A stretch of DNA of 64,000 bases from an uncultured delta proteobacterium (GTDB lineage: Bacteria > Desulfobacterota > Syntrophia > Syntrophales > UBA2185): assembly GCA_963695875.1 (NCBI GenBank), contig CAVOID010000007.1, positions 64,001 to 128,000 of the forward strand, written 5' to 3'. The translations under genes and the position numbers were made by a program. This document shows, piece by piece, positions 36,516 through 48,437 of the stretch (within the stretch, counting starts at the first letter, position 1; each line of letters starts with the position of its first letter). The notes beneath the pieces were generated by a model. It had not been told where the DNA came from. It saw only the letters and a list, made by a program, of their open reading frames with translations, and did no database searches.

Positions 36516-36569
36516 ATCACCTCTACCTTTCTATGGCAATTTTTTTACTAAATGGATTGGTATGCACCC

Positions 36570-36765
36570 TTATCGGGCGGCTCTTCACGCGAGGGTGCTG
36601 ATCATGGGCTGGCTGCTTGGACTTGCTTCAAGCACATTCGGAATTGCCGCCTCCTATAAATGGGATCTGCCGGTGGCTCCGGTCATCGTTGCTTCATTAA
36701 GTATACTTTTTTCAGTGGTTCTATTTGTCATATCAATATTCCGAAAGACCCAACAGTCGGACTGA
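36570..36765 (+). pseudogene. C-terminal fragment of a ZnuB/ABC-3 metal permease
   Basis: GWLLGLASSTFGIAASYKWDLPVAPVIV matches the SYxxDLPxGPxIV end motif; the rest of the gene is absent. Confidence 0.55.
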
Positions 36766-36854
36766 AGGATTAAAGATTGCCAGTTGTGATGTTGAATGGA
36801 TGAGCTGCATCGAACGTGGGACACGACAGAAAGAAGCCGCTGAAACCCTATTTG

Positions 36855-37523
36855 TTATTTTTTCGTCATTTCCAGCAATCTGCGTCGATATAAGTAAACC
36901 AATAAATAAAAGACAGCTACGAGGCCCAAAATTATGAAAAGGACCACGATCCGCATGGTTCTGACACTATCTCCCGTCAGGGAAAGTAAAATGGTCCCGA
37001 ATAACCGGCCAACGGTCGAAACAGCTATAAATATCCAGATATTCATCTGGCTTAAACCTATTATGTAACAAAGTGCGGCTTTAGGAAACCCGGGAATCAG
37101 AAAAAGAACAAAGCAAACTAAAGGACCCCGCGCTTCTATGAAGTGATCATACCTCTCAATAATTGAAGGGTTTACGAGCCTTCTTACGAGCGGCATTCCG
37201 TATACCCGCGAGAGGATAAAGGCTAACCATGAACCAATACTAAGACCAATTGTGGAATAGATTGTCCCGACTACGGGACCATAGAGATAGCCACCGATGA
37301 ATCCGGAGATTTCGGCAGGTATTGCTCCCGCGACCAATACCTGGAAAATTTGGATAACAATGAAAACAAGATCATCATATGGATGAAAAGATTCAATGAA
37401 GGCGACCAGTTTTTGATTATAATATGTAAAGTATGCGTAATAATGATAACTGAAGATTAGTTTAATACCGATGACCAAAAGCAATATTAGAATAAAAATC
37501 TTGATGATGAGGCGTTTATTCAA
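36855..37523 (-). CDS. TVP38/TMEM64 (VTT/DedA) family membrane protein
   Basis: GGYLYGPVVGTIYSTIG; LFLIPGFP; VGRL. Confidence 0.85.
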   Translation of the reverse strand: MNKRLIIKIFILILLLVIGIKLIFSYHYYAYFTYYNQKLVAFIESFHPYDDLVFIVIQIFQVLVAGAIPAEISGFIGGYLYGPVVGTIYSTIGLSIGSWLAFILSRVYGMPLVRRLVNPSIIERYDHFIEARGPLVCFVLFLIPGFPKAALCYIIGLSQMNIWIFIAVSTVGRLFGTILLSLTGDSVRTMRIVVLFIILGLVAVFYLLVYLYRRRLLEMTKK

Positions 37524-37644
37524 CAGGTTTGTCCATGCATTTTGTTCATCGGATGTTCTGTCTTACAGCGACACAGTGGATAAAATAAGGGGCATGGATG
37601 AACTTTTTACTATCGAACATGCCCCTAAACCAAACCGTATATTA

Positions 37645-37836
37645 TTATTTGTTTTCGCTTTTTTTAGCCTCTGAGGTGTCCTCCGGTATATGTTCCCGCT
37701 CATCCATGGCCTTTTTGAAACCCCTTATGGCCTTGCCGATAGAGTTCCCCAATTCAGGAAGTTTACCTGGACCAAAAATAATCAGGACGATAACCAGTAT
37801 CACCAAAAGATGCATTGGTTGGAGAAGCCCACTCAT
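37645..37836 (-). CDS. tatA: Twin-arginine translocase TatA/E
   Basis: [25 protein letters not shown]. Confidence 0.93.
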
Positions 37837-37967
37837 TTTTGCCTCCTATGATAGTTTGTTAGACGCTTTTATAACATTTTCCTTGCACCGTCAAACTATC
37901 ATGTTTGTCAAAAGGCCTGTAAAATTTCCGCATGAAAAGACATAGTTCTGATTAATAGAAATCAATT

Positions 37968-40901
37968 CTATTCAGCAAAAGGCTTTTCAGTGGCTGCCCG
38001 GGCCGCGGCTTCGAGGACAATTGCCACCACAGCAGCCCCATAATCAAGGTCAATGTTTGCCACCGTATCATGACTGTCATGATATCCTTTACGGCTGATG
38101 TCATAATCTTCCATGAAAAGAACTACCGGTATACCCGCATCCGAGAAAATCTGGGCGTCGGTATTATAAAGAGTACTCTTGGGATCACAAGGCAAACGAA
38201 TTTCGCCATCAAGTTTCAGGTGTGACGCAATTTCCGGGACCGTCTTTCCATCGGAACTTCGTTTTCCTCGAGTACATCTGCGACGGGACGGCCTCACATT
38301 CCAAATATCAGTAGAGGCGTTCCATAGTTCGTTGGCCACATGGGCTTGATAGGCTAACCACAATGATCCCGCCCCCATTCCCGGAGATATTTGAAATTTG
38401 TCACGTTCACTGTCATTGTTATGTGCAACCATATCAAGAATAAACACGCCCTGAATTTGAACACCTGACAGATCTTTTTCTCTATCTTTTGATAAGCGTA
38501 ATTTCAATGTACCCTCTATAATCTGTTGGCAGAGATTGCGTGCCCCGAGACAGTCTGATGGAAATTCCTCGCCGGTCAAATGAATAAGCCAGATGTCGCA
38601 GCCGAGCTTTCCCTCCCGGCTGAGTTCGCAAAAGATCGGAGCGGCACGCATCAGCGCAGCGGTTGCGGAGTGGTTATCATCTGCCCCGGCCGACGCAAGA
38701 CGCGCGCCGGAACCACCTTGTTCCTTATAATAAATATCTTCCATGTATGCCGTGTCATAATGATCCGCCATGATAACCGCACGATGGCGATCACGTCCTG
38801 GAATCACCATTAGGAGATTACGTTCCTCAAGCCGTCCCAGCTGGTTATTTGCCCAACCTCCCCACCAGTCAAAGTCAAAATCAGTTTTCCATCGGAAAGG
38901 CAGGTCTCCGACTAGTGCCTTTCCCTGCATTCCGCATTCAGCGATGACCCGCCTATAGTAGGTAAGCAAGTAATTCCCAAGTCCTTCCAGGTCTCGATGA
39001 TGATGCTTCAACATCCTTTGAGTAACAGTGTCCAGGATGCAGTCAGAATTGGCTTTATTCGTATATTCACCTGTCGACAGATGAAGGATATCCCTCCAAT
39101 ATCTCACTTCAAAAGAACGAACAGCGGTACGGATAAAAGTCAGCGAGGACAGCAGTCTTTTTCTTCCCGAAATTGGCAGATTCGGCTTTTTGTGTTCGAT
39201 CTGATCCTGCAATTGATTGGCGAGCATTTGACCTTTTTCTTTATTGCCCGCAATCTCCGGCAAAGATTTGAGCCATGCATCAAGAGTCCTATTTTCCGGC
39301 AGCATCAATATCTGTCTTGCAAAAGTGCAAGGAAGCTTTCTATTGCCGATGAGGTCGTGCGCTTCCAACAGATTCAGCGCTCTTGTAACTGTCTTTTGCT
39401 CATGTTTTTTATCTTTGAAAAGTTCAATGACGGCCATGTGTGTGTTTCGTTCGTAAAGGCTCGGCCAGAGTTCGATTGGATTATCTAAATCAACACGCTG
39501 CTTCGCGTTATAGGCGGTAAGATATCCCATAAGAGTGTCATGTAACACGGCCGGCTTATCCGTATTGTGGGGCATGTACGCTATGAGGGGGCGATGCCAG
39601 TAGACTTGGTATGATCCTATGCACATCGGCGGATATTGAAATCTGTATCCGAACATGCCACCTCGATTGACTGACTTGACGGCAGCATCAATTTCGGCTC
39701 TGGTCGCATCTGGGCCATCGAGCAATAGCTGATAGTCCTGAGTCCAGATCTGGCTGTTGCGCGCCATGGGCTTGCCGTACAGATCCAGGTCTTTTGGATT
39801 CGTGCTGAAAAGCACGTTGGCGATATGATCCTGACGTCCGGGAGTCGCAAGCTCATCTTCGTAACGGTGCACCTTTGCCCAGCGATGGGTTCGCCGGAAG
39901 GTACTTCTAATCGGTCCAAAATCTTCATTGGGCAAAGGATGGTCTTGCCGTGGTATATGCAGCCAACCGGATTGAGGCACACGAAGTCCATAAGGAGACT
40001 CATGACGCTCCACAAGATTCAACAAGGGAATCTGATTGGCCATCGCTAATTCACGCTGCATTTTGATATAACCGGGGACACCCCAAAAAAGCAAGCTACC
40101 CGGGAAAGGCAACAAGTTTAGTTCCCCCGCGAAATAAGCCCTTTTCAAATCCGCTGGAAGCAATCTCGAATGGTTCAAAGTTCAAGAGATATTTAACACC
40201 TTTCAGCGACATTCCCCGACGCCAGACCAAGGGCGCTGCCCAGACTGGCCGCAGATTATTGTGTGGATCATCATCCCCAACAAAAATGCGGAAGCCGGTA
40301 CGCATGGAGATCAGATAATTTATCGAAAGGTTCGCCGTAGGCAGCATGGAGAAGCGTTCTGATGAAATCCATTGCTCTTTCTGAGGGGAGCTCACTGCCG
40401 GTGGGCATGAAAGAAACTCTTCCAGAAAGGACGGACGGGCCCCTGTTCACTGCCGCCAAAGAATGTCCACCGTCTCCTGCCTTTGTCGTCATGGGTGAGG
40501 GAAAGAGCAAGTGGCAGAAGCAAAACGAAGCGTTCATGATTTAACGCTCCTGCCTGCTTCGCAAGCTCCGGGGGCCAGTAGGGATTATTGACTAGTTTGT
40601 TCTTGGCAAGGTGTTTAGTGGCTTCGCCGCGAGTCAGATGAACCAGAGACTCCAAAACCTGATGGGCGATATTTTCCAGCCCCGGGCGCAATTCGTAACA
40701 CTCTTCAAACTCTGTGACCGGGAAACCATAAGGGTTCTCTTCAGAGAAGAAGCCGTATGCCCTTCCACCATAAGGTCTGCAGCCCAAATGGATCGACGGC
40801 ATAAACTCCGAATAAGCTGCTATCGGATATTGCCCTTGTCCTCTGAACGAACAACTTTCTATTAGATTCTTCAAACCCAGGGGTGGCATGTTATTTTTCA
40901 T
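37968..40901 (-). CDS. Large M28-family metallopeptidase with long unknown N-terminal region (split by frameshifts at ~40395 and ~40180)
   Basis: ADHYDT, GADDNHSA, GEEFP, LDMVAH, YHDSHD; three abutting or overlapping ORFs. Confidence 0.75.
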
Positions 40902-40983
40902 GTGGCAACATTTGCAGATTGAAACTGGATCAACCCGGCAATGGATTGAAAGATGGGCTTGCAGGTGATTCGGTTTCCTGTAT

Positions 40984-41505
40984 TTAAGTCAGTTCTTTCG
41001 AGAACACCAGCTTATCATCACCGACTCGGTAAAAATTTTTGATACGCGCCGCCAGGTGGTAGCCGTTCTTCTCGTAAAAACGAATGGTGTCGCTATAAGT
41101 TTCCTGCGATGACGTCTCGATGAGGAGCATGCGCCCACCCCGTTTTGTTACATCACGCTCAACATACTCAAGCAAATACCGTCCATGTCCCTTCCTCTGT
41201 GCTGCCGGATCGACTACAATCCAGTATAAATCATACACTCCCTGCGTGAGGGGAGTTGGACCATAACAGGCAAACCCATGTAACACAGGATGCTCTTTCC
41301 CGTATTCAAGCACAACAAAGATATAGTCACTCTCATCTCCCTCTTTCAGGGCGTCATCAGCCAGTTCCAGTGCGGTCTCTATCTCGACGTCGTTGAATTT
41401 ACCTGATGAAACAACCATCTCTTCGATTCGGGATCGATCGCGCGGTTCCAGCTGACGGATATGTTCCTTTCGATTCATCTGGTTTTCTTTCGTATACTGT
41501 TGCAT
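40984..41505 (-). CDS. GNAT N-acetyltransferase
   Basis: CYGPTPLT...DLYWIVV...QRKGHG...FYEKNGY. Confidence 0.9.
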   Translation of the reverse strand: MQQYTKENQMNRKEHIRQLEPRDRSRIEEMVVSSGKFNDVEIETALELADDALKEGDESDYIFVVLEYGKEHPVLHGFACYGPTPLTQGVYDLYWIVVDPAAQRKGHGRYLLEYVERDVTKRGGRMLLIETSSQETYSDTIRFYEKNGYHLAARIKNFYRVGDDKLVFSKELT

Positions 41506-41707
41506 GCGGCTCTAGTCCTTGCGCTTATCCTCTTTTTTCACGCCCAATTTTGTTTCGAGTAAGTTTATAGCATGCAAAATTATATAAGCCTCATCTTTTG
41601 TCTGTATGTCAATTCAAGTTAAAAGAAATACCTACTAATGTTGAAGGTCGTTAGTCGATGAGTACTGCAGATAATTGGCAGAAATATATAATCGGCCGTA
41701 AACTGGC

Positions 41708-42277
41708 TCACTTCTTTTTTGCGAGCCCAGGATATAGTTTATCCTTACATTCCGGACAAATACTGTGGCTAAATTCCGCATCTGTATTATCAATAATGAA
41801 GAGCTCTATCTGCTTCCAGTCACCAGTATCGTCACGAATTTTTTTGCAGGAAGAACAAATGGGTAACAGGCCACTTAATGTTTTTATCTCATCAAGTGCC
41901 TTCTGAAGCTGGACTATAAGTAATTTGTTATTATCCGAAATAATTTTCTCCTCAGATATCAAGTAAACAACGACTATGAAAAAGCCAAAATGGACAAAAA
42001 TATTCCAAGATTCAATCAAATAATTTTGAATAACTTTTCCAGCAAAAAGATTTGCAGTCATTATCGTTGCCGTGCTGATAACCGACATAATAATTCCGGT
42101 ATTTCTGTTGATAATCCAAGTTATAAGACTAATAGGTATTAAATAAAAGACTTCAATTCCTATTTGGTAACCTGTTAAATAATCTATAACACCTATAATC
42201 AAATTCAACAGAAGACCAATAACCCAAATAAATGATCGTGGCTTCTTTAAAAGATAGTCAATGAAATACATATTCAC
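41708..42277 (-). CDS. 4-TM protein with C-terminal Cys/His tail
   Basis: Four TM segments then LSGLLPICSSCKKIRDD...FSHSICPEC. Confidence 0.8.
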   Translation of the reverse strand: MNMYFIDYLLKKPRSFIWVIGLLLNLIIGVIDYLTGYQIGIEVFYLIPISLITWIINRNTGIIMSVISTATIMTANLFAGKVIQNYLIESWNIFVHFGFFIVVVYLISEEKIISDNNKLLIVQLQKALDEIKTLSGLLPICSSCKKIRDDTGDWKQIELFIIDNTDAEFSHSICPECKDKLYPGLAKKK

Positions 42278-42528
42278 TGTTTCATTATTGCAGGTTATTA
42301 CGAATTACTACTAATAATTTCGCACACATTCCTAAATTCTTCAAATGAAGAGTTCAGGAGGTACGTGATTGGGACTGGGCCAGCGTGATCTCTTAAGAAG
42401 TGCAGCATGCGCACCTGTGCGGCATGTGAAGATTATGAAGAATCTTTTATCAATTCGGGTTTCGCCATGGACTGCCTTTTTCAAACATCAGCTCTTTATT
42501 TTTTTGCTTTCCGGAGCCTGATCCGCTA

Positions 42529-44865
42529 TCAAGAATTCATGGCAATAAGACGTCTTCCTTCCGCCGAAAGGGCCGCTTCAATATATTCAAAACCCGTAAG
42601 ACAATTCCGGCGTTCAACCACTATGACTTTTATTTGCGAGTTCTGCAGAAGCTTCATCAACTTCGGGAGATGGCGAGAACCAATCTCTGTGACAGTTGTT
42701 CCGACTTTAATGTCGTGCAGGTTAGCATATCGCACGGCCTTGGCCATCTGACGGCTTAAATCGGCTCTTTGATCTTCCAATGGCACTCTTGCATAGATGA
42801 CGGCATTCTCACTTTCCTCACTGACCTTCGATGCTGTTTCCGCTCTGGCCTTGGCTTCAGCTTCTGCCTCTTCTCTTGCCTTCAACGCGGCGGCCAGCCG
42901 CTCAATTTCTTCCGCTTTAGCTCTGGCTTCTGTCTCCGCCTTGAACCTGGCTTCCTCTTCCGCCCTGAGCCTTGCCTCCACCTCCGCCTTAGCTATCGCT
43001 TCTTCCTTTGCTCTCCTTTCAGTCTCCTCCCTTGCTTTCGCCTCTTCTGTCAATCGTGCTTCTATCCGAGCCCTCACTTTAGCGTCAGCTTCTTCTCTCA
43101 CCTTCAACTCGGCCATCAGCCATTCGACTTCTTCCGCCTTTAGACTGAGTTCTGACTCCGTTCTGGCCTTCGCTTCAGTTTCTGCTTCGTCTCTCACTTT
43201 CAACTCGGCCGCCAATCGGGCCACCTCACCCGCTTTAGCACTAGCTTCTATCTCTGCCTTGAGCCTGGCTTCCTCTTCCGCCCTGAGCCTAATTTCTGCC
43301 TCTAACCTGGTTCTTGCTTCTTCCTTTGCTCTCCTTTCCGCTTCTTCCCTTGTCCTCGTCTCTTCTGTCAATCGTGCTTCTATCCCAGCCCTCACATTAG
43401 CTTCTGCTTCTTCTCTTGCTTTAAACTCGGACACCAGCCGCTCGATTTCTTCCGTTTTAGTCCTGGATTCTATCTCTGCCTTGAGCCCTGGCTTTCGCTT
43501 CCTCCCTTGCCCTCGTCTCTTCTGTCAATCGTGCTTCTACCCCAGCCCTCACTTTAGTTTCCGCTTCTTCTCTTGCTTTAAGCTCGGCCGCCAGCCGCTC
43601 GACTTTTTCCGCTTTATCCCTGGCTTCCATTTCAGCATTAAGCCTGGTTATCTCTTCCGCCCTGAGCCTGATTTCTGCCTCTTCTCTTGCCTTCAACTCG
43701 GCCGCCAATCGGGCCACCACGTCCGCTTTAGCACTGTCCTCCATCTTTGTTCTGAGTCCGTCTTCCACTTCCGCCCTGAGCCTAGCCTCCGCCTCCGCCC
43801 TGGCTTTCGCTTCCTCCGTTGCTCTTCTTTCAGCCTGCTCCCTTGCGCTCGTTTCTTCTGCCAGCCGTGCCTCTACTTCAGCCCTTACTTTAGCTTCCGC
43901 TTCTTCCCTTGCCTTCAACTCGGCCACCAGCCGTTCGACTTCTCCCGCTTTAGTCCATGCTTCTATCTCTGCATTAAGCCTGGTTATTTCTTCCGCCTTT
44001 AGCCTAATTTCTGTTTCTTCTTTTGCCTTCAGCTCGTCTGCCAACCGTGCTTCTACTTCAGCCCTAACTTTAGCTTCCGCTTCTTCTCTTGCCTTCAACT
44101 CGGCTACCAGGCGTTCGACTTCTTCCGTCTTAGTTCTGGCCTCTGTCTCTGTCTGAGCCTGGCTATCGCTTCCTCCCTTGCTTTAGTCTCTTCTGCCAAC
44201 CGCACTTCTACTTCAGCCCTTAATTTAGCTTCCACCTCTTCTCTTGTCTTCAACACGGCTGCCAATCGGGCTACCTCGCCCGCTTTAGCACTGGCCTCCA
44301 TCTTTGTTCTGAGTCCGGCTACCTTTTCCGCCCGTGCTCTCCTTTCCGCTTCCTCCCTTGCTTTAGTCTCCTCTGCCAACCGCACTTCTACTTCAGCCCT
44401 TACTTTAGCTTCCGCTTCTCCTCTTGCCTTAAACTCGGACACCAGCCGCTCGATTTCTTCCGTTTTGGTCCTGGCTTCTATCTCTGCATTAAGCCTGGCT
44501 TCCTCTTCCGCCTTGAGCCTAATTTCTGCCTTCGCTCTAGCCTTCGCTTCCTCCGTTGCTCTCCTTTCCGCTTCCTTCCTTGCTCTCGCCTCTTCTGCCA
44601 ATCGTGCTTCTACTTCAGTCCTCACTTTAGCTTCTGCTTCTTCTCTTGCTTTAAATTCGGACATCAGCCGTTCGACTTCTTCCACCTTGGTTCTGGCTTC
44701 CATCTCTGCCGTGAGCCTGGCTTCCTTTGCTGCCCATGTCTTTTTGCTCGTGACTACTTCTGTCTTTTCGTATTGAGCCGATTCAGAAATTATAACATTT
44801 AGTTCATCCAAGAGCATTCTATCACTTAGTGGGAGCCAGTTATTGCATGTATCCGTTTTTAACAT
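42529..44865 (-). CDS. Long Glu/Ala/Arg/Lys repeat helical protein with C-terminal degenerate IS607-type serine recombinase domain (two frameshifts)
   Basis: Three consecutive ORFs share the ERLxxExKAREEAE repeat; the last ends AVIYARVPLEDQRADLSRQ...VIVVERR...IEAALSAEGRRLI. Confidence 0.75.
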
Positions 44866-44935
44866 ATATTTCCCTTCTTTAATTCAGCTTTTAACCCTTT
44901 AATCATACAGGTTATGACTTTACATAGGTTAACAG

Positions 44936-44972
44936 TATAAAAAACCCCGCACTCTTCTGAGAAACGGGGTTT
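44936..44972 (-). terminator. Rho-independent terminator or attenuator
   Basis: Minus strand AAACCCCG...CGGGGTTT followed by a T-run. Confidence 0.65.
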
Positions 44973-45228
44973 AACTAATTAATCCATAGCACCCTCATGC
45001 GGGGTTAATAATTAAAAAATATAATCTGTTGAAAACGTATTTTTATTATCACGCTTTCTCGATGAAATCTACTATAAAAGAAAAATCACGGTAGCAATAA
45101 TTACAGGAAACACTAAAAAAGACTTTCTCGATCAATTGCCCGGAATGAGCTGATGGTGCTACTTTAGCCCAATCGACAGTGACGGATAAGCTTCGCGAAG
45201 TTCATGGAGCTAATCCCGGAAAATGTAA

Positions 45229-45886
45229 TTATTTTTGTGAAAAGACGACATCCTCCGTCAATTGGTTCCCGGAATACAAACCCATCCTGTAAATATAATC
45301 CATGACAACTTTTGGGACCATATTGTCTATTGATTGATCTGTTTTTATCCTATGCCGTATGTCCGTGGAAGAGATAGATAGCGCCGGTTCTTCAATGATG
45401 GTTACATATGGCCGGAAATCATCGGGAATTCTTTCTTCTATCTCCTTTCTCTGATAGCCCGGTCTAGTGGCAGCAATAAAATTACAGAGGCCGGGATATG
45501 TTTTCGATTTATCCCAGTTAATGATTGTCAATACGGCATCTAACCCGGTTATGAAATAAATTTCACTGTCTTTGCCATACATTTCTTTAAATGCGCTGAT
45601 AGTGTCACCGGCATAAGTCGGGCAGTTACATCCCATCTCGATTTTCGACGCTTCAAAGTAAGAATTTCCCGCAATCGCTGCACTGACCATAGCAAAACGA
45701 TGCTCTGCTGCTGTTATGTCATTCATTGATTTATGGGGAGGACAGTAGGCAGGGACAAAGACAACCTTCTCCAGGTCAAATTTCGATCTGACAAATTCGG
45801 CTACTGCAAGATGACCGAAATGAATGGGATCAAAGGTGCCTCCCATGATGCCGAGCTTGCGATATATTTTTTTTCTCCAGTTCCAT
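45229..45886 (-). CDS. nadD: Nicotinate-nucleotide adenylyltransferase
   Basis: GGTFDPIHFGH, ISSTDIR; ATG at 45886 joins after a 1-nt correction in the homopolymer near 45870. Confidence 0.92.
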
Positions 45887-46949
45887 CACAGCCTCAGATC
45901 AGACAGATCCACCTTGTCAATACTATCCGGCTGCCATCTTGGTTGATTGTCCTTGTCGATAAGGCGGGCCCGAATGCCCTCACGAAAGTCCGGATGCCTG
46001 ATGATAAACTGCATGGCCATGAAGTCTGCCTCATAAACCTTATTCATGGGAAGATGTTCATTATGACGCAACAGCTTCAAGGTTAAGGCCAACGCTGTCG
46101 GAGACCTTTCTGAAAGTCCCGATGTGATGCCATCACAGGGTGAAAGCAGGATAGGCACACATGAAGAGAATCGATGATCTCCTGCAAGGATGTTTGTCCC
46201 GCAAAATATTTCTTCACCCATATATCTATATCCGGTTTTGGTACGATATTTCTATCAAAATAGAATTTGATTCTCCTCATCAGCCGGGGCAATATCTCTT
46301 TGGAGCTTGAAATTTCCTTTGTCTTGAATGTCTCGATAGCTTGTATCAGGTCATTAACCTTTTTCGAATGTGTCAAATGCGTAGCGAAACCCACACGGAC
46401 ACACTCGCTTCCCTTCATCTCAAAACTTGTGAGTCCCAGATATTCCGGATAGCCCGGCGGACATTTGCTGTACATCCATCCCGTTGCACCCACATCGGGA
46501 AAGAATCCTATCCTCGTTTCCGGCATGGCCATGCGGGTTCTTTCTGTTGCAACCACCCAGTCGGCGCCTGATGCAATGCCAAGCCCGCCGCCCATTGTAA
46601 TGCCGTCGGCGATTACAATCACCGGTTTGGGGAATTGATGAATCACCAGATCAAGGGTGTATTCCTCCAGAAAAAACTGATTTATCTCCTCCATGTTGTC
46701 GTTCTGAATACACCAGGCTACACGCTTTATATCACCGCCGGCGCAGAATGCCATCTCACCCAGACCGTAAAAAAGAATCAACTTGCATTCATCATCCGTG
46801 AGTGCCTCATTCAAATACCTGGTAATAAGGCGGATCATTTCAAGGTTGAGACTGTTCAATGCCTCTTTTCGATTTAGAATAATCGACATACCTGCGCTTG
46901 TACGACGCATTATTACAGAGGACTTTTCTGAGTCATGGTTATTCGTCAT
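45886..46949 (-). CDS. Enoyl-CoA hydratase / 3-hydroxyisobutyryl-CoA hydrolase family (frameshift ~46150)
   Basis: AFCAGGDI, GITMGGG, MPETRIGFFPDVG, DFREGIRARLIDKD. Confidence 0.88.
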
Positions 46950-47130: not shown

Positions 47131-48437
47131 ATGGAAACACAACTTGATCCCAAACTTCCGCTTTTGCAGAATGCCGACGTGGAGAATAAAATAGTCCTTT
47201 TGCGCGTTGACCATAATGTGGTCAAGAAAGGAGCCATCGAAGACCCGTTCAGAATAGATCAAACCATTGGAACTATCTTCAATATCGTTGAAAGGGGCGG
47301 CAGACCGATCATTATGACGCATATCGGAAGGCCGCGAGACAAGACAGGCAAAATTAAAGTAGACAAATCGACCTCGGTTGAACCCATTGCGGAATATCTG
47401 GAGCGTAAGCTTCATACAAAGATCTACTGTCCCACATTCAGGCCGGAAGGTGATGAAGGAATAAAAAGCGTCGACACCTCGATAAATCTTGCCGTAAAGA
47501 ATCTGAAAGAAAAAAGGATCGGCGCCATATACCTCCCGAATACGAGATGGTTCACGGGAGAAGAATCGAAAACGGAGTACAGCGACTGACTTTGGCACGC
47601 CAATTGGCAGGCCTGGCCGATGTCTTCGTTAACGATGCGTTCGGCTCCTGGCAGCCGCATGTCTCCACCTATCACATCACGAAGTATCTCCCGTCGTTTG
47701 CGGGATATCTCATGCAAAAGGAAATACAGAATCTTTCGCAGGTTCTGCAACCCGAAAGGCCGTTCATCTCTGTCGTGGCAGGCGCAAAGTACAATACGAA
47801 GATCGGACCTCTCAATGAAATCTATAAGAAAGTGGATAAATTGATCCTCGGCGGGATCATTTACAATACCTACCTGTGTGCAAAATATGATGTCTCAATC
47901 AGCGGTATCGAACAGGAAGATATCGAAGCCGCCGGTAATCTTGTCGAGATGGACAAGGAACAGCACAAGATACTGGAACTTCCATATGTGTATGAATCGG
48001 ATACCATGGAAGGGAAGATTGAGGGAAAATACAGGATCAGGTCGATAAAGGAATTCAAAAAAGGCGCGAAACTTCCTTATATTCTGGATATTGCAAAAGA
48101 ATCGTTCGAAGATCCGGAGATATCGGAAGCTCTGAACTCGGCAAGAACCATTTTTGTTAATGCCGTCATGGGATATACGCCGTATTTTACCGAAGGCTCT
48201 GCGGCCCTGGACAGCAAAATCGATCAGAATGCAGCGGCAAATAAGCTCTATGGAGGCGGGGATACGCTTCAGGAATTTAAAAATCTGTGCCCCGGTCTTT
48301 ATCTATCGACACTTGATAATTCGAAATACTATTTCTTCACGGGCGGCGGTACGGTGTTAAAGGCCATTGAGGAAGGTACACCATACGGTCTTGAGGCGGT
48401 GAAAGCGCTCATCGATAACGGCGGAAAATCTCCGTAA
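47131..48437 (+). CDS. pgk: Phosphoglycerate kinase (frameshift ~47570)
   Basis: LRVDHNV, THIGRP, FVNDAFG, GGGDT, TGGG. Confidence 0.88.

Follow-up and report, generated by a model that had tools for sequence, protein, structure and literature searches.

A minus-strand gene at 44865-42529 of a 64,000-nt window encodes a protein in which the catalytic core of an IS607-family transposase (TnpA), apparently dead, sits at the end of a very long charged rod. The window (G000:C7:64001-128000) belongs to a metagenome-assembled genome, G000, of 2.86 Mb in 16 contigs that is 82.6% complete. Organisms carrying the gene, called here the rod gene, come from peat, wetland and sediment metagenomes; their genus is uncultured and labelled Syntrophales. 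The reading we favour, and hold to be moderately probable, is that this is a real gene whose dead TnpA knob dimerises or docks a partner at the end of the rod, that the rod arose by expansion of a linker, and that the frameshifts present in the window are most likely errors of assembly.

Three adjoining minus-strand open reading frames (ORFs), at 44865-44104 (253 aa), 44098-43457 (213 aa) and 43434-42529 (301 aa), form one single-copy chromosomal gene. Three-frame translation places ORF1 and ORF3 in one frame and ORF2 off by one. Read through from 44865 to 42532 the gene has 778 codons, close to the ~780 proposed in an earlier inspection of the DNA (the original prediction), which had already joined the three abutting ORFs. 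The product consists of a head of 37 aa (44755..44865), a rod of ~650 aa (42805..44754) and a tail, or knob, of ~90 aa (42532..42804), followed by a stop codon (42529..42531).

The C-terminal core and its orthologs

The relationship of the tail to serine recombinases emerges from profile, structural and alignment comparisons. Submitted as the last 99 aa alone, it matches PF00239 (Resolvase) over profile positions 1-73 of 145 with an E-value of 2e-5 and 25.2 bits, against a gathering cut-off of 23.3 bits; the match is not reported when the full 301-aa ORF is submitted. The IS607 transposase model NF033518 of NCBIfam is matched over positions 52-152 of 187 at E 3.2e-18, with 65.9 bits, which is below that model's 110-bit cut-off, and the IS1535 TnpA core (PDB 6dgb) at E 4.5e-17. 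The tail follows the order β1-αA-β2-αB-β3-αD-β4. It was modelled with AlphaFold2 (AF2) from a 109-sequence alignment, the only model used for the knob, and the predicted local distance difference test (pLDDT) is mostly ~90 or higher, with means of 87-95 in 10-residue blocks and 81 in the last three residues. The top Foldseek match of this model is 6dgb_A (E 5.7e-8, root-mean-square deviation 1.4 Å over 93 columns, 44% identity), followed by 6dgc, 3lhk, 3ilx and 3lhf.

Conservation was scored on 103 TnpA rows, in which 41 positions are at least 70% conserved. The tail keeps 32 of these and has changed 9, among them the nucleophilic serine, replaced by proline (codon at 42783-42781), and the D and R of the DRLxR motif, replaced by N and C, respectively. 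Proline occupies the nucleophile site in all six rod-type sequences, whereas serine is found there in 87% of the TnpA rows. Two deletions distinguish the tail from TnpA: three residues after GS, and a two-residue RF stretch that includes the second Arg of DRLxR. The YARV, DQ..DL.RQ, E.GS, IVVE and FEY.EAAL.A.GR motifs are kept, as are helix B (79-86) and helix D (104-113). The protein ends directly after β4, so that helix E is absent. No remnant of this helix was found downstream, in any frame, when the window and four relatives were searched with the TnpA profile; an apparent match downstream in the congeneric genome G002 falls in the next gene and was rejected.

The Asp and Arg residues of DRLxR have a catalytic role in the Tn3 and gamma-delta resolvases. 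Because the nucleophilic Ser has become Pro, the Asp and two Arg of this motif are gone, and helix E and the DNA-binding domain are absent, the tail is, as judged from its sequence, a descendant of the catalytic core of IS607-family TnpA that cannot carry out recombinase chemistry. Most of the examined features that define IS607-family TnpA are missing and core homology alone is kept; the protein is therefore a descendant of that family and not a member. These results agree with the original prediction, which had seen the IS607 TnpA catalytic pattern in the last ~90 aa, with Pro as the nucleophile, an eroded DRL.R and a missing C-terminal helix, and had proposed a comparison of this segment with PF00239 and IS607 TnpA, both of which it matches. 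Its failure to see tnpB also holds: no TnpB-type domain (PF07282) was found in G000 at its 82.6% completeness. Nor does G000 hold a further IS607-type TnpA, the sole other match being a classical resolvase on a high-GC contig. Locus L002 (G000:C9:245487-248804) carries a classical small serine recombinase, with a catalytic domain followed by a C-terminal helix-turn-helix (HTH), that is far more GC-rich than the window and may represent a foreign element or bin contamination.

The same protein is found elsewhere in the genus. In G002 an uninterrupted frame has the same head, rod and tail, 811 aa long from the conserved Met (locus L027), and a pattern scan of genome records recovered a protein identical to it in a Syntrophales bacterium record (L006). 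A metagenome scan gave 31 loci, of which four are rod-type (L025, L026, L027 and L028), with 78-95% tail identity; the others reach at most 51%. Intact ORFs are present in L025 (711 aa), L027/G002 (811 aa) and L028 (900 aa), and L026 is a C-terminal piece at a contig end. At E <= 1e-3 the tail has 254 matches in a set of 1.84 billion representative proteins; of these only P0001, a fragment of 150 aa with 96% identity, is rod-type, the others being at most 52% identical. Homologues of 460-1465 aa with the tail, or of 391-1245 aa with the head, were absent from the protein searches; the shorter proteins with the head amount to one N-terminal fragment, P0151. A protein of 2416 aa matched in six stretches (P0054) was discarded as a spurious match to an RHS/WD40 protein. 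Another representative protein, P0033 (379 aa), combines N-terminal pentapeptide repeats with an apparently intact IS607-type core in which both the Ser and helix E are present. Searched with the tail as query, 39 of 40 relatives lacked a TnpA, and the single match was the rod gene itself. No relatives of the rod protein were found in viral contigs, and nothing in the ESM Atlas scored above 0.76.

All rod-type tails share the Pro, the two deletions, the N and C at the D and R positions, and the position of the stop, which lies within 0-2 residues in all orthologs, directly after β4. The ratio of nonsynonymous to synonymous substitution rates (dN/dS, Nei-Gojobori) of the tail is 0.175 over 87 codons between G000 and G002. 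In pairwise comparison of five sequences over 81 tail codons it is 0.07-0.20 in all 10 pairs, with a bootstrap upper bound at or below 0.43. By this measure the tail is evidently under purifying selection; the head, at 0.205 over 40 codons, gives a similar figure. A maximum likelihood tree built on 117 cores (96 columns) unites all six rod-type cores in a single clade (support 100/100), which speaks for a single origin; the stem of this clade is 0.57 changes per column and its tips are at most 0.08, and the tree does not settle the sister group. Since three relatives with intact ORFs share the head, the lesions and the stop, and since tail dN/dS is low, the rod gene is not a decaying insertion sequence (IS). 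The proposal that a transposase fold has been co-opted, which the original prediction wished to see checked by orthologs of the same fusion and dN/dS of the recombinase part, is strengthened by these intact fusions and by the selection acting on their tails.

The rod, the head and the proposed expansion of a linker

The rod consists, by eye, of ~11 imperfect units of the ERLxxExKAREEAE type, 60-74 aa long. At the DNA level Tandem Repeats Finder detects periods of 155-335 nt, and the orthologs show units of 60 or 74 aa. The rods of the orthologs are 577, 676 and 766 residues long, with 23-26% Glu, 22-24% Ala, 12-13% Arg, 10-11% Lys, 0-2 Pro and a net charge of -18 to -29; the intact 577-residue rod of L025 has no Pro and seven Gly. 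Unit-to-unit dN/dS within L025 is 0.40-0.57, indicating a weaker constraint than on the tail. No signal peptide or transmembrane (TM) segment is visible by eye in the rod protein.

Charge statistics were computed for each of the three window ORFs and for L025 against 1000 shuffles. Opposite charges at i,i+4 occur at 0.31-0.34 per residue, compared with 0.12-0.13 in shuffled sequences (0/1000), and the power of an apolar/charged alternation of period 2 is 13-36, compared with 0.24 (0/1000). A heptad signal was not found: the power at period 3.5 is 0.13-0.18, against a shuffled mean of 0.24-0.26, and period 3.6 does not exceed the shuffles either. Because these two periods do not stand out, a canonical coiled coil is not indicated, and a single-α-helix-like rod, albeit one in which half of the residues are apolar, fits the sequence better. 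The alternation of two negative and two positive residues with Ala recalls the self-complementary EAK-type peptides and domain II of TolA. When the 711-aa L025 protein was modelled by AF2 on a 3-sequence alignment, residues 13 to 604 came out helical, apart from dips at 148-168, 290-302 and 430-442; on this shallow alignment the mean pLDDT is 65 and the predicted template modelling score 0.19. Outside the three dips the rod is mostly at a pLDDT of ~65-85, and the knob is poorly modelled in this full-length prediction (30-72). With a rise of 0.15 nm per residue for an α-helix, a rod of 580-770 residues would be ~85-115 nm long if fully helical. The earlier description of the rod thus survives in part. 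Its length of ~650 aa, its paucity of helix breakers and, by eye, the absence of a signal peptide and TM segment are borne out, while the count of ~12 units becomes ~11; of the proposed coiled-coil/single-α-helix scaffold, the i,i+4 charges favour the single helix and the missing heptads leave the coiled coil unsupported.

The head contains 16 invariant columns in five aligned sequences. Some 11 residues, probably disordered, are followed by a conserved acidic amphipathic helix (LSDRxLLDELNxII.E.AQ.EK) that runs into the rod; in the AF2 model it is helical from residue 13, continuous with the rod, at a pLDDT of 71-76. The suggestion that the N-terminus is a relic of the TnpA HTH finds no backing: alignment of the head with the TnpA N-terminal domain by hhalign has a probability of 0.1%, and none of the five heads matches Pfam with a meaningful E-value.

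A third genome of the genus, G001 (88% complete), lends support to the linked suggestion that the repeat expanded within the linker. Its locus L058 (1417-1656 (-), on G001:C436) is a relic, an ORF of 79 aa in which the head is recognisable (49% identity, E 4.5e-6). Twelve residues past the head, the DNA aligns with the start of the core of all four orthologs; the alignments score 31-41, whereas shuffles reach at most 26-28 (0/500 shuffles). The relic has Ser-Ser codons where rod forms have Pro-Leu or Pro-Met; one extra base then shifts the frame, and the remaining core is deleted. A rodless form with these Ser-Ser codons fits an ancestor made of head, short linker and core, and this suggests that the rod was expanded in the linker; loss of a rod in G001 would be less parsimonious.

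Frameshifts, gene integrity and surroundings

Comparison of repeat copies indicates a missing base near 44153 and an extra G at 43486-43488. At the first site (44151..44156 on the minus strand) ORF1 leaves the frame, to stop at 44104, and at the second, an extra G in a GGG run (CCC on the plus strand), the first frame is regained; the original prediction had located the two shifts at ~44150 and ~43490. Logan contigs of four runs (X1-X4) from four studies were placed on 42300-45100. At 43486 the single covering contig of X2 and that of X3 each omit one letter. At 44153 the single covering contig of X4, with a depth of 4.8, has an extra letter behind this position and a change at 44153 itself. 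Once the contig differences at both sites are applied the frame is continuous. In addition L025, whose flanks are 92.5% identical to the window, lacks the extra G (gap at 43488). Joints within the placed contigs (skips of 159, 882 and 1418 and one step back of 666) reflect short contigs within repeats and were not accepted as proven length variants.

The three genes immediately upstream are broken in a similar way. Relative to L025, a 1-nt deletion at 46154 splits a gene of the enoyl-CoA hydratase family (ECH) into two ORFs corresponding to positions 4-239 and 253-329 of Pfam ECH_2, a kinase-like gene falls into ORFs of 152 and 296 aa through a 2-nt indel at 47589, and a nadD-like gene has a 1-nt indel at 45861, in its 5' part. 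Elsewhere in G000 an acyl-CoA-dehydrogenase-like gene appears, by eye, in three pieces (L060, G000:C3:186058-189206). Because four consecutive genes are broken within 6 kb and other contigs lack the shifts, the assembly is most likely at fault for the two frameshifts in the rod gene; that this strain's copy was inactivated very recently is less likely. The G000 assembly is probably rich in single-base indels, and other frameshift findings in it call for caution.

These observations bear on the possibility that the gene is a pseudogene, a repeat-rich ORF that happens to read through into what is left of a decayed IS607 and carries two real frameshifts. The two shifts in the window, the best-matching run X1, which covers neither of them, the loss of catalytic residues, helix E and DNA-binding domain, and the congener in which only a decayed relic is left could all be read in this way. 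The same junction and stop are nevertheless found in three intact full-length orthologs, and tail dN/dS is low in every pair. The shifts are also missing from X2 and X3 at the second site and from X4 at the first, and the breakage of adjacent housekeeping genes points to assembly. A chance read-through is largely refuted for the family as a whole, and we consider it improbable for the gene in the window.

The rod gene is preceded by a ribosome-binding site, AAGAAGGGA (44879-44871), and an ATG start (44865-44863), both on the minus strand in a stretch kept in all five aligned loci. Upstream, at 44930..45080 (minus strand), the alignment reveals an intergenic element of a dispersed type, ~55-140 nt long, which ends in a perfect 9-bp hairpin (44941-44972) and a T-run and occurs at eight places in G000. 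All four full orthologs carry an identical hairpin ahead of the rod gene although the genes upstream differ, and contigs of four metagenome runs, otherwise unrelated, have only this 32-nt hairpin in common. No covariation was detected in the alignment of the element (15 pairs), and an Rfam search of 42200-45300 gave no match. The element may be a REP-like (repetitive extragenic palindromic) or a terminator-type mobile repeat. Promoter and terminator scans were not above shuffles, and RNA runs were absent from the 20 runs listed for the sequence.

Homology between G000 and G002 spans the gene, ~200 bp upstream and ~50 bp downstream. The flanking genes differ, and the gene therefore stands alone, with no partner that could be inferred from its neighbours. 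In the window these are a nadD-like gene, a GNAT gene, an M28 peptidase gene and a gene for a DedA/VTT protein. The ~5.8 kb between the rod gene and a cupin gene (36567-42350) are absent from L025 and constitute a variable region with a DedA/VTT membrane protein, a 736-aa M28-peptidase-domain protein, a split gene (40271-40901), a GNAT acetyltransferase and a small membrane protein. At 41708-42277 (-), a 189-aa membrane protein without a Pfam match has a C-terminal CxxCKKIRDD...W...SHxICPxC motif.

Possible roles and comparison with known systems

According to PMC6188088, the cores of IS607-family TnpA dimerise via helices B and D and not via helix E, and a TnpA construct ending at β4 still forms DNA complexes at high concentration. 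As the tail ends at β4 and keeps helices B and D, the dimer interface of the TnpA core, the knob at the C-terminus of the rod most likely serves, by analogy, to homodimerise or to dock a partner, much like the oligomerisation or binding cap envisaged in the original prediction. The favoured reading can be laid out as a sequence of events. A TnpA-like gene composed of head, short linker and core would have lost catalysis, and its linker would have undergone a runaway expansion. The knob would then homodimerise or dock a partner, the rod would serve as a spacer or tether, longer or shorter in different lineages as units are gained and lost, and the head would bind a second target.

A bolder version, which we put forward only tentatively, holds that a serine-transposase core has been exapted as a pure protein-protein module and that its linker has grown into a variable, charged single helix of ~100 nm. 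Together they would make a new intracellular spacer, tether or filament subunit, and the G001 relic would preserve the starting state.

Several points weigh against the favoured reading. The rod, ~49% charged and ~23% Ala, does not look like a classical E/R/K single helix, and other conformations might in principle suit its strict period-2 alternation better. The flanks vary among orthologs, and among them there is no conserved neighbouring gene that would point to a pathway. Taken alone, the G001 relic does not reach significance against the TnpA profile (E 0.35). The case against the first frameshift consists of one X4 contig of depth 4.8 together with the intact orthologs. Finally F126, the residue that cross-links across the core interface of IS1535 in PMC6188088, maps, by our count on the alignment with 6dgb, to the F of the deleted RF stretch, and the dimer interface may have been altered by this deletion.

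A different architecture would be a head-to-tail polymer, in which one molecule's acidic head helix binds the knob of the next at the site of TnpA helix E to form filaments or a lattice in the manner of a cytoskeleton. In TnpA, as described in PMC4058570 and PMC6188088, helix E packs on the core and is kept in place by acidic side chains in contact with active-site arginines. In the rod protein helix E is gone, a conserved acidic amphipathic helix is present at the opposite end, and both ends are under selection. Two of the arginines that would receive such a helix have themselves been lost, however, and the contact is pure inference, with support neither from modelling nor from co-variation; such a polymer seems to us unlikely.

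It is still less probable that the protein acts as an anti-transposon decoy, with the dead core heterodimerising with an incoming IS607 TnpA via helices B and D and so poisoning transposition. Such a role would agree with the retention of the dimer-interface helices after the loss of chemistry, and with the failure to find an IS607 TnpA or tnpB in G000 or a TnpA in 39 of the 40 relatives searched. A decoy would, on the other hand, have no need of a 100-nm rod and a conserved head, the core is at most 52% identical to the nearest TnpA, and the absence of IS607 from relatives removes the selective pressure. Equally doubtful is a DNA-binding protein that no longer cuts: no DNA-binding domain is detectable, helix E is absent, the rod has a net charge of -18 to -29, and viral contigs hold no relative.

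Long Ser/Ala/Leu-rich ORFs of 401-592 aa lie antisense to the repeats in every ortholog (42797-44002 (+) in the window, L025 3251-5029 (-), L028 391-1716 (-)) and most likely reflect no more than the codon composition of the rod. That the real gene should instead be on the plus strand, encoded by ORFs such as 42797-44002 (401 aa), can practically be dismissed: although they recur in the window and in orthologs, these ORFs terminate within the repeats, have no start context, head or domain and are expected as the complement of GAR/GCN/AAR/AGR-rich codons, and both homology and selection lie on the minus-strand frame.

The closest known relatives are IS607-family TnpA proteins (IS607, IS1535, ISC1926; 6dgb, 6dgc), with which the rod protein shares core fold and sequence, including helices B and D. 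It differs from them in lacking the nucleophilic Ser, the D, R and R of DRLxR, helix E, the winged-helix/MerR-type DNA-binding domain and tnpB, and in being single copy. Moreover, where TnpA has a linker of 3-11 residues, the rod protein has a helix of 580-770 aa. The rodless relic and the forms of 711, 811 and 900 aa offer a natural series in which to study the birth of a long repetitive helix from a linker.

Single α-helix (SAH, or ER/K) domains resemble the rod in their dense i,i+4 charges, absence of heptads and predicted uninterrupted helix, and differ from it in composition and in the strict period-2 alternation. The rod is also, as far as is known, far longer than characterised SAH domains. 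Its unusual, strictly alternating Ala/charge pattern, in a bacterial protein, could be of use for biophysics. PMC4183817 and PMC5378345 describe SAH domains as linkers and constant-force springs. A further likeness is to TolA, whose helical domain II is rich in Ala, Glu and Lys: TolA models give weak matches (E 1.2e-7, 31.4 bits, below the cut-off of 59.45 bits), and one source annotates an N-terminal fragment of the rod protein as a colicin-uptake membrane protein. Unlike TolA, the rod protein has, by eye, neither a TM anchor nor the TolA C-terminal domain.

Retention of a serine-recombinase fold after loss of catalysis has a parallel in poxvirus F16/OPG061, models of which are found at ranks 17, 20 and 36 among the fold matches of the tail. 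PMC4304020 describes F16 as an inactivated serine recombinase of obscure role. Whereas F16 is viral and of ordinary size, the rod protein is bacterial and chromosomal, a bare core on a giant rod, and the two are not closely related in sequence. A limited literature search brought up no description of a fusion between an IS607 core and a helical rod, and none was found in sequence searches beyond the genus.

That host functions can recruit transposase parts is well established for eukaryotes. For bacteria there is, to our knowledge, little documentation of it, and the known cases make use of DNA or RNA recognition. In the rod protein the part reused would be the catalytic core alone, devoid of chemistry, DNA binding and helix E, yet subject to purifying selection. 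If this is true, the IS607 core would represent a self-standing interaction module.

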